Assembly: GCA_963768615.1 (NCBI GenBank)
Contig: CAVYIE010000004.1
Location: 624,406-688,405 of the forward strand
Origin: Candidatus Eiseniibacteriota bacterium
GTDB lineage: Bacteria > Eisenbacteria > RBG-16-71-46 > JABDJR01
Length of the DNA: 64,000 nucleotides
Direction of reading: 5' to 3'
Below, piece after piece: positions 4,842 through 64,000 of this stretch (its first letter is position 1; every line of letters starts with the position of its first letter). Position numbers and translations under genes: made by a program. The notes beneath the pieces are model-generated. The model was not told the DNA's origin. It saw only the letters and a list, made by a program, of their open reading frames with translations, and did not search any database.

Positions 4842-5264
4842 ATGAAGAGCTACCGCGAAACCCTGACCATGAACGTCCCCGAGCGCATGGACTTCGTGAA
4901 CATCACCCCCCAGGTCGAGGAGGCGCTCCGGAAGAGCGGCATCCGCGAGGGGATGGTGCTCTGCAACGCCATGCACATCACCGCCAGCGTGTTCATCAAC
5001 GACGACGAGCCCGGCCTGCACCAGGACTACAAGCGCTGGCTGGAGAAGCTCGCCCCCTTCGACCCCAGCCCCGAGCGCTACCACCACAACCGCACCGGCG
5101 AGGACAACGGCGACGCCCACCACAAGCGCCAGGTCATGGGACGGGAGGTGGTGGTGGCGGTGACCGGGGGGAAGCTCGACTTCGGCCCCTGGGAGCAGAT
5201 CTTCTACGGAGAGTTCGACGGCCGCCGCCCCAAGCGGATCCTCATCAAGATCATCGGGGACTGA
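4842..5264 (+). CDS. yjbQ: YjbQ/UPF0047 family protein (secondary thiamine-phosphate synthase family)
   Basis: [23 protein letters not shown] and [13 protein letters not shown] motifs; GGAGG RBS. Confidence 0.9.
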
Positions 5265-5272
5265 CCGCCCGC

Positions 5273-5300
5273 CCTCCCGAGGCTCCTGGGCCTCGGGAGG
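5273..5300. terminator. 11-bp perfect hairpin between convergent genes
   Basis: CCTCCCGAGGC-tcctgg-GCCTCGGGAGG; no U-tract. Confidence 0.45.
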
Positions 5301-5330
5301 ACGGACACCGATCGTGTCCCGGCCGGCGGG

Positions 5331-8300
5331 TCAGTTCTTGAACGACTTGTCCGGGTAGGGCGGATGGCGGAGGGGCTCCACCGGCTCCTCCGCGATCTTC
5401 TTCTTCAGGTAGTCGATGGCCGCGTCGAGCTGGGCGTCCTCTCCTTCGAAGGTGGCGTGGGGGAGGTTGTCCACGGTGATGTCCGGGTCCACCCCGTGCC
5501 CCTCGATCAGCCACTGCCCCTCGGGGCCGTAGACCCCGTACTCGGCCGCGGTAGCAATGCCCTTGTCGACCAGGAAGTTGCTGGAGCTGAGCCAGATCTC
5601 GCCCCCCCAGGTCCGGGTTCCGATCACCGGACCGATCTCCAGGCGGCGGAAGCCCTCGGCGAAGACCTCGCCGTCGGAGGCGGTGTTCTCGTTCACCAGC
5701 ACCACCGCGTGGCCGCGGAAGGCGTACTGCATGTTGTAGACCGGCGGCTCGCCCACCCGCTGGCTCCAGGCCATCCACGCCTTGCGGATCAGCTTCTCCA
5801 GGATCCACGATTCGATGTTCCCCCCGCGGTTGCTGCGCACGTCCACGATGAGGCCGGGGCGGTCGAACACGGGGTAGAAGTTCTCGGCCCAGGAGGTCCA
5901 GTCGGAGCTTCCCATGGCCCGGAGGTGCACGTAGCCGATCTCGTCGTCGCTCTTCCGGTCCGTCTCCAGGCGGCGGGTGTACTCCCACTCGGTGTAGCGG
6001 AGGTCGGCCTCGGCCCGCTGGGATATGGGCTCCACGATCACCTCCCGGGCCTTGCCGCCCCCGGCGGGGGAGACGGCCAGCAGCACCTGCTTCCCGACCT
6101 GGTTCCGGAGCAGCCGGCCCAGGTCCGGGGCGGAGAGGGCGTCGGCCCCGTTCACCGCGGTGATCACGTCCCCCTCGCCCACCTTCACCCCCGGCCGGGC
6201 CAGGGGGGCGGTGTCCGAGGGATGGTCGGGGTCGGTGCGGTAGACGTGGGTCACCCGGTAGCCGCCGCGGGCGGGGTCCCGCACCGTCACCGCGCCCAGG
6301 GCCCCGACCTGGATGTCCTCCTCCGGCTCCCGCATGGCCCCGCCGTAGACGAAGATGTGCAGCGCGGAGAGCTCCGAGACCATCTGGCCCAGGATGTCGG
6401 AGAGCTCCTCCCGGCTGGCCACCCGGTCCACCAGGGGCAGGTACTTCTCGTAGACCGCATTCCAGTCCACGCCCTGCATGTTGGGGTCGTAGAAGTAGTC
6501 CCGCTCCAGCCGCCAGGCCTCGCGGTACATCTGCCGCCATTCCTCCCGGGGGATCACGGTGAGCTTCCACCCCGAGAGATCCACCCCCGCCTTGTCCAGG
6601 TCGGCCTTCTTGGGGGCGGCGTCCACCACGTAGAGCCCGTTCCCCTTGTGGATGAGCAGCTTCTTGCCGTCCAGGGAGAGCTCGTAGGACTTCACGTCCT
6701 CCACCACCGGGTTCACCTCGAAGTCCTCGTTGGTGATCTTGGCCCCCATGAGGTTCCGCTTGTGCTCGCCGGGAGGGGTGGCCAGCCAGTAGAGGGCGTC
6801 GGCGGTGGCACTCAGCCCGCCGTAGTTGCCCGGGGGCACCGGGGTCTTCTCGATCCGGGCCGCGATCCCGTCCAGGTCCACGGTGACCGTGACCCCGCCC
6901 ATCTCCTCGTCCTTCTTGTCCCCGTTCTTCTTGCTGTCCTTCTCTTCGGCTTCGCCGCCGGCGTGCAGCTCGTCGGCGGGGGCGAAGGGGGAACGGAGGC
7001 CGGGGACGAGGGCGATCTGGAACACCTCGGTGGTCTTGTCCAGGTAGGGCTCGGGCTGGTAGCTCCCCCATACCCCGCCCACCGAGGTGGTGAGGTTCCG
7101 GTCCGAGAGGAGGTACAGCCACTTCCCGTCCGCGCTCCAGGCCGGGCTGTAGCTGTCGAAGCGGTCGGTGGTGATCCAGGTGGTGGTGCCGCCGGCCACG
7201 GAATACAGCTTCACCCGGCGGAACATGTTCTCCCCGGGGATCACGTAGGCCAGCCACCGGGAGTCCGGCGACCAGGCCAGGCCGCTGAACTGGTCCACGG
7301 TGCTGGAGTCGATCTTCCGGTCGGTCTTCCCCTCCACGTCGTAGAGCCAGAGGATCTGGTTCTTGTCGTGGTGGGCGATGAGCTTCCCGTCCGGGGAGGG
7401 GACCGCCTCCCAGCGGAGGATGGTTCCGTCGTCGGTGAGCTGGACCGGGGCGCCGACCCCGTTGGCGGGCAGGGTCCAGAGTTCCACCTCCCCGGATTCG
7501 TCGGAGAGGGTGAGGAGCCGCTTGCCGTCGGGCATGAACTTCGCGTCCCGGTAGCGGACGCCGTCGTTGCGTTCGGCGGTGACCAGCCGGCCCTGCTTGG
7601 CCGGGGCCACGAACACCTCGCCCCGGGCGGTCAGGGCCACCCGGTCCCCGTCCGGGCTCAGGTGGGCGGCGGTGAGCCAGTCCATGGGCTTCTCGATCCA
7701 CTGCTCCCGCGTCTGGTCCAGGTCGGTGCTGAGGGTGATGGGGACGGTCACGTCCCGGTCCTGGTCGATGGAGTAGACGTGGATGTCGGCCCCGAGCTGG
7801 TAGGCGATCCGACCCTCGGAGAGGGTGGCGGACTGGGCGTCGAAGCCGGCGTGGGTGGTGTGCTGGCGGAGGTCGGAGCCGTCGGGGAGCATGGACCAGA
7901 GGTTCATGGTTCCGTCCCGGTCGGAGAGGAAGTAGACCCGGCCGTTCCACCACATGGGGTCCTTGCTGGTCCCGGCGTAGTCGGCGGTCAGGGGCACCGC
8001 CTCCTCGGCGCCGGGGGCGTACTTCCACAGGTTCTGCGCCGTGCCCCCCTTATAGCGCTTGGTGTGGCTGCCCTGGAAGGGGAAGCGGGTGAAGTAGAGG
8101 GTGCCTCCGGCCCGGTCGTAGCAACCGCCGGCGGCCTGGGCGAGGGGGACCAGGTTCTCCACGCCGGCCTCGGTGGGGGCGGACACGTCGAGCAGGGCGA
8201 GCTGGGCGCTGGGGAGGGTGGAACGGACGTCGGTGGCCACCATTACCTTGCCGTCCGGGGTCCAGCCGGCCACCCCCAGGCGCCGGCCGCCGCCGTAGGT

Positions 8301-48095: not shown

Positions 48096-48122
48096 TCAAG
48101 TCCGCCTCCGCCCCGCCGATAG
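48096..48122 (+). promoter_or_regulatory. sigma28 (FliA) promoter upstream of the MglA-like gene
   Basis: TCAAG-N14-GCCGATAG, 74 bp before ATG 48197. Confidence 0.8.
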
Positions 48123-48196: not shown

Positions 48197-49627
48197 ATGG
48201 TCGTCGTGTCTTACTCGGGGAAAGAGATCAACGCCAAGCTGGTCTATTACGGTCCCGGACTCAGCGGGAAGACCACCAACCTCGAGTACATCTACCAGAG
48301 CGTGCCCAACAGCAACCGGGGCAAGATGGTCTCCATGAAGACCCGGACCGAGCGCACGCTCTTCTTCGACTTCCTGCCCGTGGACCTCGGGGAGATGGGC
48401 GGGTTCAAGACCCGGTTCCTTCTCTACACCGTGCCCGGCCAGGTCTATTACAACGCCACCCGGAAGCTGGTGCTCCGGGGGGTGGATGCGATCATCTTCG
48501 TGGCCGACTCCGCCCGGGGGAAGATGGACGAGAACCTCGAGTCCCTCCGGAACCTCCACGACAACCTCAAGGAGTACGGCCTTTCCCTCGACGAGATCCC
48601 CTTCGTGGTCCAGTACAACAAGCGGGACATCGAAGACGTGTACAGCGTCGAGGAACTGGAGCAGGCCCTGAACCCCACCGGGGCGCCCTACTACGAGGCG
48701 GTGGCCACCACCGGTCAGGGCGTATTCGAGACCTTCCGCGGCATCGCGCGGGTCCTGCTCCAGAAGCTCAGCAAGGAGATCAAGGTGGGCGAGGGACGCA
48801 GCCTGGAGGCGAAGTCGGCCGCGTTGGCGAGCCCGGCCGAGCCTGCGGCCCCGGGACGGAAGACGGAGGCGCCGGCCCCCGTTCCCCCCGCTCCGGCCCC
48901 CGTCGCCGAGACTCCTTCCTTTACCAAGCCGCCGCGGCCGGAGTTGGTCCGGGCCTCGGAGCCCGTTCCCGTGCCGGAGACCCAGGCGGGCCCGGTCCGG
49001 GGCGCGGAACCGGATCCGGAACCCCGGCCCGAGGCGGAAACCGAGCCCCTGGGGGCCGGGGACGGGGCCCAGGAAACCCCGGCCGAGACCCCCGCTCCGG
49101 CTCGCCGGTCCCCCTACGGACCGCCCCGCCGGCCCGCCTCGCCGCCCGCGCCGGAGCCCCGGGCTCCGGAGCCGGTCGCGGAGGAGCATGCGGAACCCGG
49201 GAAGCCCGCCCCGGCGCCGGAGGCGGTGGAGGCCCGGCCGGAACCGGCCCTCCCCAGCCCGCCCGAACCGGTGCGGGAGCCCGAGACCGTCACCGCGCAG
49301 CAAAGGACCGCCATGGCCGCACGCCCCCGACCCGACTCCGCCGCCGACCCCGAGGAGCGCCCCGGCTTCTGGGGCCGTCTCTTCGGCCGCGGGAACAAGG
49401 AAGAGCAGGGAGCCGGCGCCTCGCCGGCGACCCGGGAAGCCCGCCTGGCCCCGGTGGAGCTGCCCGCGGTGGGCGGCTCCGGGGACGCCTCCCCGGTGTT
49501 CATCGAGCGCCGGATCCAGGTCCCGATCACCCTCGGGCCCGAGGAGATGGTGCGGGGAGCGCGGCTCCGGCTGGTGCTGGAGATCCAGGTGGAGGCATCC
49601 GGCGAGTCCGGGAGCAAGGTGGCCTGA
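48197..49627 (+). CDS. mglA: MglA-family small GTPase with a long Pro/Glu/Ala-rich C-terminal extension
   Basis: EINAKLVYYGPGLSGKTTNL, RTLFFDFLP, LYTVPGQVYY and NKRD motifs; about 280-aa tail containing GFWGRLFGR. Confidence 0.9.
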   Translation: MVVVSYSGKEINAKLVYYGPGLSGKTTNLEYIYQSVPNSNRGKMVSMKTRTERTLFFDFLPVDLGEMGGFKTRFLLYTVPGQVYYNATRKLVLRGVDAIIFVADSARGKMDENLESLRNLHDNLKEYGLSLDEIPFVVQYNKRDIEDVYSVEELEQALNPTGAPYYEAVATTGQGVFETFRGIARVLLQKLSKEIKVGEGRSLEAKSAALASPAEPAAPGRKTEAPAPVPPAPAPVAETPSFTKPPRPELVRASEPVPVPETQAGPVRGAEPDPEPRPEAETEPLGAGDGAQETPAETPAPARRSPYGPPRRPASPPAPEPRAPEPVAEEHAEPGKPAPAPEAVEARPEPALPSPPEPVREPETVTAQQRTAMAARPRPDSAADPEERPGFWGRLFGRGNKEEQGAGASPATREARLAPVELPAVGGSGDASPVFIERRIQVPITLGPEEMVRGARLRLVLEIQVEASGESGSKVA

Positions 49628-61218: not shown

Positions 61219-61258
61219 ACCCGTGACCTCACCGACTACCCGAAGGAGACCCACCGAC

Positions 61259-62032
61259 ATGGCCACGCAGCGCATCGCCACCCGCACCACGCCCGATCTT
61301 CCCGCCAAGCCGGGAAGCTGGAGCAAGCCGTCCAAGGACGAGGCCTACCGCCGCTATGCCCCGCTCATGAAGTACGTGGTGGACCGCGTGGCCTCCAACG
61401 TGCCCAAGTACGTGGAACGGGACGACCTGCTCAACGCCGCCGCCCTGGGGCTGTTCGATGCCCTGGAGAAGTACGACAGCGGCAAGGGAACCAAGTTCGA
61501 AACCTACGCGGTGTGGCGGATCCGGGGCGCGGTGCTGGACGAGCTGCGGGCCATGGACTGGGCCAGCCGTTCGGTGCGGCGCAAGGCGCGCCACGTGGAC
61601 ACCCTCACCCGGGACCTGGACCAGCGTCTGGGCCGGGCGGCCAGCGACGACGAGCTGGCCGAGGCCATGGAGATCTCCTCCACCGAGATGGCCCGGGTGC
61701 TGGAGGAGGTGCGCGGAGTGGTGCTCCTCTCCCTCAACCAGTCCCCCAACGACACCGAGGAAGGCCATTCGGGCGGCCTGGCCGAGGTGATCGAGGATCC
61801 CAACACCGAGGACGCCCTGGACGAGATCGAGAAGCAGCAGCTCTCCGAGGTGCTGGTGGACGTGATCAGCGATCTCTCCGAGCAGGAGAAGCTGGTGCTC
61901 GCCCTCTACTACTACGAGGAGATGACCTTGAAGGAGATCGGCCAGACCCTGGGCATCTCCGAGAGCCGGGTCTCCCAGATCCACACCAAGGCGATCTCCC
62001 GCCTCCGGGGGCGGATGCGGCGCGCCGCCTGA
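61259..62032 (+). CDS. fliA: FliA/WhiG-family sigma factor (sigma28)
   Basis: DDLLNAAALGL, KFETYAVWRIRGAVLDELRAMDWASRSVR and LKEIGQTLGISESRVSQIH motifs. Confidence 0.95.
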   Translation: MATQRIATRTTPDLPAKPGSWSKPSKDEAYRRYAPLMKYVVDRVASNVPKYVERDDLLNAAALGLFDALEKYDSGKGTKFETYAVWRIRGAVLDELRAMDWASRSVRRKARHVDTLTRDLDQRLGRAASDDELAEAMEISSTEMARVLEEVRGVVLLSLNQSPNDTEEGHSGGLAEVIEDPNTEDALDEIEKQQLSEVLVDVISDLSEQEKLVLALYYYEEMTLKEIGQTLGISESRVSQIHTKAISRLRGRMRRAA

Positions 62033-62056
62033 TCCCCGGGCGCCGGCCGTGAACGG

Positions 62057-62072
62057 CGGCACGGCCCTTGCA
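62057..62072 (+). promoter_or_regulatory. sigma54 promoter for the GAF/GGDEF-like gene
   Basis: CGGCACG-GCCC-TTGCA, 24 bp after the fliA stop. Confidence 0.85.
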
Positions 62073-62378
62073 ATTTGCATGACCGGCGGGGCGATCCGCC
62101 CGGCCGGAGATCACATCGAACGGGGGGGAAGACTTGGACGCAGCCGACCGAACCGCCGGCGAACGACCCGAAACGGCCCTGGAGGGGTCTTTCGGGGGTG
62201 CCGCCGGCCCGGTCGGGGGCCCGCCGGACCCGGGGGGGACCGGCGGCCCGGACCGGCCTCGCATTGCGCGACGGCCGATTCCTGACCGGTGGAACGGACG
62301 ATTCCCGACCACCGGCTCCCGGTCCAGCCTCCGCCCCGGACGCACCCTGACCCGACACCCAGACGGAGGGACCCTCGC

Positions 62379-63671
62379 GTGAAGACGACCCGCAAGCGCA
62401 CCTCGGCCAAGACCGCCGCCGGCAAGACCGCCGCCGGCAAGACCGATCGCAAGACCGCCAGGAGCCGTCCCACCGCCGCCAAGGCGGCCCGGGAGAAGGT
62501 GGCCCTGGTGGAGAGCCTCCAGGGCATGGGCCTGCTGGAGCAGACCGAGGCCGAACGCCTGGAGAAGAAGGCCGAAACCCTGGGGGCGGAGAAGAGTTCC
62601 GAGGGTCTGAACCGGGCCGCGGGCTGGGACCGGAACCTGCGGACCAGCCTGGAAGGATTCTCGGTGTCCGGCGGGGACAAGAACGCCGCCCACGCCCTCC
62701 AGGCCCTGATGCTCTGGCAGGGTGGGCTGGCCGGGCTCTCCGCCGATCCCGAGGGCATCGGCGAGGCCATCGGCGCTCTGAGGAAGGTGGTTCCGTACTC
62801 GGGGGCCACGCTCTTCCTCCGCGATCCCGACCGGCAGACGGTGAGGCCGGTGGTGTCCCTGGGCATCCCGGTCGACCTGATCAGCCGGATCCGGTTCAGC
62901 GAGGGGATGGGTTTCTCCTCCTGGGTGGCCGGGCGCCGGAAGCCGGTGCTCTACGCCTCCCTGCACCGCAACGAGGCCCCGGGGGAAGACCGGGTGCGGT
63001 CCTTCATCTCCGTGCCCCTGGTGGTGGGGGAGGCCTGCGTGGGGGTGCTGAACCTGGGCCATCACGAGGACGGATTCTACGGCCCGGCCCACCTCCGGAC
63101 CCTGATCCTGGCCGCGGCGGTGCTGGCGTCGCTGGTCCAGCGCCACGTGGCCCTGAACCAGATCGCGGAGCGGGAGATCCGCGACCCGAAGACCGGGCTG
63201 GCCACCGCCGGGTACCTGCGCTCCCGGCTGGAGGAGGAGGTGGTCCGCTGCCGCGAGCTGGGCCACTCCATGAGCCTCCTCGTGTTCCGCCTCAACGAGC
63301 TGGAAGAGCACGTGGAGCGGTTCGGACCCGAGTATCGCGGGCGCTGCCGGTCGGAGCTGGCCGAGCTGGTCTCGGCCTGGCGGGAGCCCTCCGAGCTGGT
63401 GGGCCACGGGACCGACGACCGGGTGGTGGTGATCCTCCCCTCGGCGCGCCGGGAGAAGGCGGAAGCCCGGGCGGCCGCTCTCCGCGAGGCCCTCGAGAAG
63501 CACAACTTCCCCCGGCGCAAGCGGATGACCGTCGGCCTGGGCCTGGCCACCTATCCCGCCGACGCAGAAGCGGCTCAAGATCTATACGATGCCGCCGATA
63601 AGGCGTTGTATGACACGGCGCGAACCCGGCCCGGAGAACCGGCCGGGATCCAGCCTATGGCCCTGTCCTGA
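62379..63671 (+). CDS. GAF plus degenerate GGDEF-domain protein with a Lys/Ala-rich N-terminus
   Basis: GAF domain (GEGMGF-like ..WVA...SFISVPL...VGVLNL); DPKTGL, GTDDR in place of GG(D/E)EF, and ADKALY motifs; GGAGG RBS. Confidence 0.85.
   Translation: MKTTRKRTSAKTAAGKTAAGKTDRKTARSRPTAAKAAREKVALVESLQGMGLLEQTEAERLEKKAETLGAEKSSEGLNRAAGWDRNLRTSLEGFSVSGGDKNAAHALQALMLWQGGLAGLSADPEGIGEAIGALRKVVPYSGATLFLRDPDRQTVRPVVSLGIPVDLISRIRFSEGMGFSSWVAGRRKPVLYASLHRNEAPGEDRVRSFISVPLVVGEACVGVLNLGHHEDGFYGPAHLRTLILAAAVLASLVQRHVALNQIAEREIRDPKTGLATAGYLRSRLEEEVVRCRELGHSMSLLVFRLNELEEHVERFGPEYRGRCRSELAELVSAWREPSELVGHGTDDRVVVILPSARREKAEARAAALREALEKHNFPRRKRMTVGLGLATYPADAEAAQDLYDAADKALYDTARTRPGEPAGIQPMALS
63575..63601 (+). 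promoter_or_regulatory. sigma28 promoter embedded in the 3' end of the GGDEF-like gene
   Basis: TCAAG-N14-GCCGATAA, 94 bp before ATG 63696; built from codons rare in this genome (GCT CAA GAT CTA). Confidence 0.7.
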
Positions 63672-63695
63672 TCCAGGAGGGCGGTGCGGACCCAC

Positions 63696-64000
63696 ATGAC
63701 CGAACACCAAGACGTTCCGTTCAACCCCGAGATCCGGCCCCGGCTCCTGGTCGTGGACGACGAGGAGAACGTGGTCCAGATCCTCCAGGATCTGTTCAGC
63801 GAGCGCCCCTACGACGTGGACACGGTCACCTCGGGGGAGGAGGCGCTGGAACGGCTGGAGGCCAACCGGTACGACCTGCTCCTCACCGACATCAACCTTC
63901 CCGGAGTGAACGGGCTGAAGGTGGTGGAGGCGGCCAAGAACGCCGATCCCGACATCGTGATGATCGTCATCACCGGTTACGCCTCCACCGGGACCGCCAT
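63696..64000 (+). CDS. Response-regulator receiver-domain protein (partial)
   Basis: LLVVDDEE...LLLTDINLPGVNG...ITGYAS; AGGAGG upstream; truncated by the window end. Confidence 0.9.
   Translation, partial: MTEHQDVPFNPEIRPRLLVVDDEENVVQILQDLFSERPYDVDTVTSGEEALERLEANRYDLLLTDINLPGVNGLKVVEAAKNADPDIVMIVITGYASTGTA

Follow-up and report, generated by a model that had tools for sequence, protein, structure and literature searches.

Can a few codons near the end of a bacterial gene also serve as the promoter of the gene that follows? A 64,000-nucleotide stretch of Candidatus Eiseniibacteriota DNA (the window) raises this question, because an earlier note had read a sigma28 promoter, TCAAG-N14-GCCGATAA, in the coding sequence of a gene for a GGDEF-like protein. 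An exact search of the window and the reading frame of the host gene confirmed that the motif occupies 63575-63601 (+) over the residues A-Q-D-L-Y-D-A-A-D-K, within the final ~100 bases of the gene. The organism, a soil bacterium, belongs to a candidate phylum without a cultured member, in which nothing is known, to our knowledge, of how genes are regulated, and a search of the literature on Eisenbacteria motility found nothing specific. From comparisons of DNA and protein sequences, we consider it very likely that the motif is a working, dual-coding sigma-28 (FliA) promoter in the 3' end of a GAF/degenerate-GGDEF gene. Its elements are as follows.

62379..63671, + strand: host gene, encoding a Lys/Ala-rich N-terminus, a GAF domain and a degenerate GGDEF domain (GTDDR for GGDEF)
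63575..63579, + strand: -35 element TCAAG, formed by the third base of the Ala codon GCT, the Gln codon CAA and the first base of an Asp codon; all 16 non-redundant orthologues read CTCAAG here
63580..63593, + strand: spacer of 14 nt over the codons for D-L-Y-D-A; constant in length and free in its letters among orthologues
63594..63601, + strand: -10 element GCCGATAA, over the codons GCC GAT AA-, the Ala-Asp-Lys of the AD.AL motif of GGDEF domains
63608..63610, + strand: predicted transcription start, ~7 nt past the -10, placed by the spacing usual in FliA promoters
63696..64000, + strand: downstream gene, truncated where the window ends; a Response_reg match, with only the receiver domain visible

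The host open reading frame is 430-460 amino acids long (430 in the form recorded in databases) and ends at 63671. Its product matches Pfam GAF_2 and GGDEF (PF00990); in an alignment of 45 orthologues the GG(D/E)EF active-site motif was absent, its position reading GTDDR or similar, and we therefore speak of a degenerate GGDEF domain and not of a cyclase. The N-terminus (62379-62470) is a Lys/Thr/Ala-rich, histone-tail-like repeat whose length varies widely among orthologues. In the host frame, the codons overlapped by the motif are GCT CAA GAT CTA TAC GAT GCC GCC GAT AAG, and the register of the two elements equals that of the FliA consensus TAAAGTTT-N11-GCCGATAA, which is the enterobacterial form, as quoted in PMC7286023. 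Against this consensus the -10 agrees at 8/8 and the -35 at 4/5 positions, 12/13 fixed positions in total; the spacer measures exactly 14 nt, and the sole mismatch is C in place of A at the second base of the -35. Three sequence features of a FliA promoter, namely the -10, a correctly spaced -35 and a gene for a FliA-family sigma factor in the same organism, are found here.

Short motifs can arise by accident, and this one might do so if it were simply what results from encoding AD(K)AL, a motif of GGDEF domains, together with AQ(D/E)L close by. GCC GAT AAG legitimately encodes the widespread A-D-K of GGDEF domains, and 0.45 copies of GCCGATAA alone are expected per window (G+C content 72%). 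The full TCAAG-N14-GCCGATAA motif, however, was matched exactly once in the window and never in 100 shuffles of it, and a total of 245 kb of Eisenbacterial sequence contained 27 copies (22 at the intragenic site, 4 ahead of mglA and 1 at another place) against 0.015 predicted by shuffling.

Gln, Ala and Asp at this site are conserved also for reasons of the protein, so the argument rests on codon choice and not on residues. We collected the orthologue family by protein search (45 proteins, 43-65% amino-acid identity), retrieved the DNA of 21 loci from collections of genomes and metagenomes with peptide patterns that leave codon choice free, and added 2 further loci by exact-protein look-up. 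We aligned the codons of 15 non-redundant orthologues on the basis of their protein sequences; of the 355 codon columns, only 8 had an invariant third base: 3 were Trp/Met columns, 1 was ACC and the other 4 were motif codons (NNT, CAA, GNC and GAT). The description of the A/T-ending codons as atypical held, because outside the motif CAA makes up 13.7% of Gln codons and GAT 30.6% of Asp codons in this gene family, GCT, CCT and TCT make up 5.4% of Ala, 8.1% of Pro and 1.3% of Ser codons, respectively, and other invariant Gln and Asp columns use both codons. Third-position A/T reached 43-51% over 63561-63620 across the clade versus a gene mean of 16%, and the 12 A/T-richest third-position windows of the whole gene all fell within those 60 bases. 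Mean identity between lineages at four-fold sites was only 46%, indicating that silent sites are near saturation and that the lineages are nearly independent; for CAA alone to be kept by accident in 10 independent lineages the probability is ~1e-9 (0.137^10). Among 10 lineage representatives, the only columns in which the third base was always A or always T were 63573, 63576 and 63597, all of them in the motif.

The same bases were retained where the residues changed. The full motif was present in 23/24 sequences, with the -35 reading NNT CAA GNN in all orthologues and the -10 taking the form G[C/T]C GAT A[A/T]N, its Asp always GAT; a base table of the 16 non-redundant orthologues showed G.CGATA to be as fixed as CTCAAG. 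The first residue over the -35 is Ala, Pro or Ser, always encoded by NCT (GCT/CCT/TCT), and the third is Asp, Glu or Gly, always beginning with G (GA./GG.), while the residue after the Asp of the -10 is Lys, Asn or Ile, encoded by AAG, AAT, AAC, AAA or ATA so that A[A/T] is retained. In the spacer, variation affects the third positions and also many of the first and second ones, and the length is constant. Half of the clade carries the -10 variant G-T-CGATAA, which is plausible as a FliA element because E. coli FliA is reported to be bound at a GTCGATAA -10, the holA site (PMC4183435). The sole exception was the relative L027, a single case in which a one-base change turns the Asp into Glu and the -10 into GCCGAAAA with TCAAG kept (L027:5158-5184); this genome is lower in GC (57%), and its 67-nt intergenic region held no replacement motif.

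The same residues (SQDL...KKAD) also occur in L022, an outgroup paralogue, which encodes them by ordinary codons (AGC CAG GAC ... GCC GAC), leaving it without the motif. Conservation in the orthologues goes beyond what the protein needs, in rare codons that are invariant and in bases that stay fixed under changing residues. The synonymous-conservation check attached to the proposal of dual coding accordingly came out strongly in its favour: the motif's rare codons were invariant in all 15-16 non-redundant orthologues, and spacer third positions were free. On these sequence comparisons, chance resemblance is effectively refuted, and we regard it as scarcely credible.

Synonymous constraint alone does not name the factor that reads the bases. 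They could serve some other nucleic-acid function, as an mRNA element (a site for an RNase or sRNA, or a structure), as the site of another protein or as rare codons that slow translation for the folding of the GGDEF C-terminus, and a run of rare codons could in principle cause ribosome pausing. The pattern of conservation speaks against this, as it consists of two short blocks at a fixed distance around a free spacer, in register with the sigma-28 consensus; bases kept under amino-acid change are not what rare-codon pausing requires. RNAalifold found no shared structure (0 pairs) over the motif and leader, and the blocks are neither repeats nor palindromes. As sources of constraint, conserved RNA structure was rejected on the same RNAalifold result, and an overlapping open reading frame in another frame was rejected because conservation is limited to the two blocks with their free spacer. 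Both blocks also recur in non-coding DNA, where codon effects cannot apply, at a second site that had been described as having the same motif and spacing:

48096-48122, + strand: second motif, TCAAG-N14-GCCGATAG, between genes and 74 nt ahead of the ATG of mglA (48197)

A relaxed scan of both strands of the 64 kb (T[ACT]AA-N14-16-NCGA[TA]A) returned only this site and the one at 63575, and a search of the window for weaker copies, with 2 mismatches allowed, added one further site, which is at chance level. Four relatives were checked for the mglA-upstream motif, which was kept in L023, L024 and L026 and present with a one-base -35 variant in L025. In the window and the relatives it lies ~74-100 nt upstream of the gene, in intergenic DNA that is otherwise divergent, and TCAAG is the -35 common to the mglA promoters and the intragenic site. 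With these observations, we judge a function other than that of a promoter to be improbable. MglA itself (window 48197-49627) has a Pro/Ala/Glu-rich C-terminal extension of ~280 residues with a short conserved segment at its end; the extensions differ in length among relatives, in which the protein totals 417-600 aa.

If the motif is a sigma-28 promoter, its presumed sigma factor is encoded close at hand. The locus upstream of the host gene contains the following elements.

61256..62032, + strand: fliA, gene for a FliA/WhiG-family sigma factor (TIGR02479, 257.7 bits vs a cut-off of 189.6)
62058..62072, + strand: sigma54-type site GGCACG-N4-TTGCA, upstream of the host gene; found only in the window, L001, L003, L004 and L008
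60110..60126, + strand: sigma54-type site CTGGCC-N7-TTGCA, upstream of flhG-fliA and just past the gene for an NtrC-type activator

The fliA product passed the cut-off of the PRK06986 FliA subfamily (237 vs 201) and stayed below that of the NCBIfam WhiG equivalog (253.5 bits vs 343); its closest solved structures are those of Streptomyces WhiG (6pfv, 6pfj) and E. coli FliA (6pmi). In all loci a FliA-family sigma gene lies directly upstream of the host gene, and among relatives the sigma is 77-91% identical versus 51-66% for the adjoining host gene, a far better conservation that fits a stable promoter specificity. The order upstream in the window is PAS histidine kinase, NtrC-type sigma54 activator, MinD/FlhG-like ATPase and sigma, and synteny is kept throughout as kinase, NtrC, (FlhG), FliA, GGDEF-like protein and hybrid kinase. 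Past the hybrid kinase, the next gene is convergent in L003 and on the same strand in L027. The downstream gene had been taken for a response regulator; the receiver domain is there, but it belongs to a REC-GAF-HisKA-HATPase hybrid kinase, which is 572-588 aa long in the relatives that have it at full length. As separate observations, the matching WhiG structures 6pfv and 6pfj come from entries of the RsiG/c-di-GMP complex, and a degenerate GGDEF gene directly follows the sigma gene in every relative; nucleotide-linked control of the sigma is a candidate idea.

The suggestion that the sigma28 input comes on top of sigma54 read-through stands in part. Read-through is plausible from the GGCACG-N4-TTGCA site and from the lack of a terminator, but only a subclade has that site; the sigma28 motif, by contrast, occurs in almost every sequence. 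The other sigma54-type site, CTGGCC-N7-TTGCA, has counterparts in the corresponding position of L002-L007, L009 and L017, before flhG-fliA or before fliA alone, and a conserved site of this type after the NtrC gene and before fliA suggests a sigma54-to-sigma28 cascade. Relatives without flhG carry an extra sigma-28-like motif between ntrC and fliA (L017, L006 and L007). Two of these are on the minus strand (L017:2883-2909 and L006:2850-2876; TCAAG-N14-GTCGATAA or TAAAG-N14-GCCGATAT) with no convincing open reading frame downstream, so that an sRNA or antisense transcript is possible; the third, L007:2831-2858 (+), reads TAAAG-N15-GCCGATAT upstream of fliA, where autoregulation could be meant.

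The position of the intragenic motif suits a promoter of the kinase gene. It is oriented in sense, in the 3' part of the open reading frame, with its -10 ending at 63601, 95 nt 5' of the start of the next gene, from which the host stop is separated by a gap of 24 nt. In all loci the end of the -10 lies 64-79 nt from the host stop and ~90-130 nt from the downstream start codon, and a search of 62000-64000 found neither a terminator nor an alternative sigma70 promoter, so that nothing of the kind intervenes before the same-strand gene. FliA holoenzyme might nevertheless bind here without yielding productive kinase mRNA, because the RNA is unstable, the site is a decoy or collision modulates read-through; most intragenic FliA promoters of E. 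coli are reported to make unstable RNAs and to be functionally unimportant (bioRxiv 10.1101/188474). Non-functional sites of that kind are reported not to be conserved between species (bioRxiv 10.1101/188474), however, and the Eisenbacterial motif is conserved in all but one of the sequences against a background of saturated silent sites, in a geometry before a conserved gene that is the same as that of the functional motA promoter inside flhC. Unproductive binding seems to us about as unlikely as the other functions considered above.

None of the RNA runs searched contained the window. Transcript data for one relative, L013, point weakly in the direction expected for a promoter. Each of 7 runs catalogued as RNA, the majority of them soil metatranscriptomes and one labelled as a 'GENOMIC' library, gave one near-exact contig within 5110-5554, from the -10 onward. 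The same 7 runs had no contig in the ~570 nt before the -10, in a set of runs chosen with a 4900-5500 query and with a depth of ~2-3. The contigs carry no 5'-end information, and the leftmost (5110-5347) starts 12 nt upstream of the predicted +1, so that at least that molecule represents read-through RNA or DNA.

We propose that RNA polymerase carrying the neighbouring FliA-family sigma would recognize TCAAG as the -35 and GCCGATAA as the -10 of the intragenic promoter. Sigma54 promoters ahead of flhG-fliA and, in the subclade, also ahead of the host gene would bring up FliA, and read-through from sigma54 may also partly transcribe the host gene and the kinase. FliA holoenzyme would then initiate inside the host gene at ~63608-63610, producing an mRNA leader of ~87 nt made up of the last 20 host codons, the stop codon and the 24-nt spacer, and this sigma-28 transcript would encode the REC-GAF-histidine-kinase hybrid alone. 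Because transcription would start within the host gene, the kinase gene would receive a sigma-28 input separate from the source of host-gene transcription; the kinase would join mglA in one regulon, and its level would be uncoupled from that of the GGDEF-like protein. The promoter appears to be built on residues that the protein requires in any case (Q-[D/E]-L and the A-D of the GGDEF fold), with rare A/T-ending codons spelling it and selection holding those codons fixed across the clade. Overall, the sequence comparisons support the interpretation offered in the earlier note.

A wider reading of the locus, which we put forward tentatively and would not yet favour, is that a FliA/WhiG-family sigma detached from flagellar assembly heads a small polarity/signalling regulon of mglA and the REC-GAF hybrid kinase. 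A sigma54/NtrC module might switch the sigma on, the intragenic promoter might close a loop in which sigma-28 raises a kinase that feeds back on the cascade, and the GGDEF-like protein might sense nucleotides as a partner of the sigma, in analogy to WhiG-RsiG.

If the intragenic promoter is real, the same bases are selected as codons and as promoter, an unusually clean natural bacterial 'duon' whose signal can be read from codon choice alone across a whole candidate phylum. It would provide mglA and the hybrid kinase as two targets of high confidence for the FliA-type sigma, together with a clade-specific promoter consensus, TCAAG-N14-G[C/T]CGATA, usable for reading the remaining regulon from genomes alone. 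Silent sites in the host gene would not be neutral, which matters for codon-based evolutionary analyses.

Several known systems share features with this site. Like canonical class III flagellar promoters (PMC7286023; FliA ChIP-seq motif in PMC4183435), it has an identical -10, the register TAAAG/TCAAG-N14-GCCGATAA and a cognate FliA-family sigma. It differs from them in the C at the second -35 base and in its intragenic position, and the two target genes recognized in the clade so far, mglA and the hybrid kinase, are not flagellar structural genes. Streptomyces Sigma-WhiG reads TAAA/GCCGATAA-type promoters and is linked to c-di-GMP signalling through the anti-sigma RsiG. The Eisenbacterial sigma resembles it as a FliA-family sigma putatively working outside flagellar assembly; unlike Sigma-WhiG, it misses the WhiG equivalog cut-off and reaches that of the FliA subfamily, and the GGDEF-like protein next to it is degenerate.

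Among described systems, the nearest analogue lies within flhC of E. coli and other gamma-proteobacteria: the motA promoter, which depends on FliA (Fitzgerald, Smith, Lapierre, Wade; bioRxiv 10.1101/188474) and in which the architecture of the Eisenbacterial site is already known. Each is a sense sigma-28 promoter, in Eisenbacteria a probable one, in the 3' part of an upstream open reading frame and drives, or would drive, the next gene. In both, the GCCGAT of the -10 coincides with codons for Ala-Asp, and the promoter is kept from species to species and places a constraint on the coding sequence that it overlaps. The Eisenbacterial site differs in belonging to an uncultured phylum of the FCB group, in having a hybrid sensor kinase and not a flagellar motor operon as its target and in being known from sequence alone. 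In FlhC, the Ala-Asp pair is apparently kept only for the promoter, and D178A is functional (bioRxiv 10.1101/188474). The Eisenbacterial Ala-Asp and Gln, unlike those of FlhC, belong to a conserved motif of the protein family itself; because the protein also needs these residues, the footprint of the promoter lies mainly at silent sites and in the substitutions that it allows (A/P/S, D/E/G and K/N/I).
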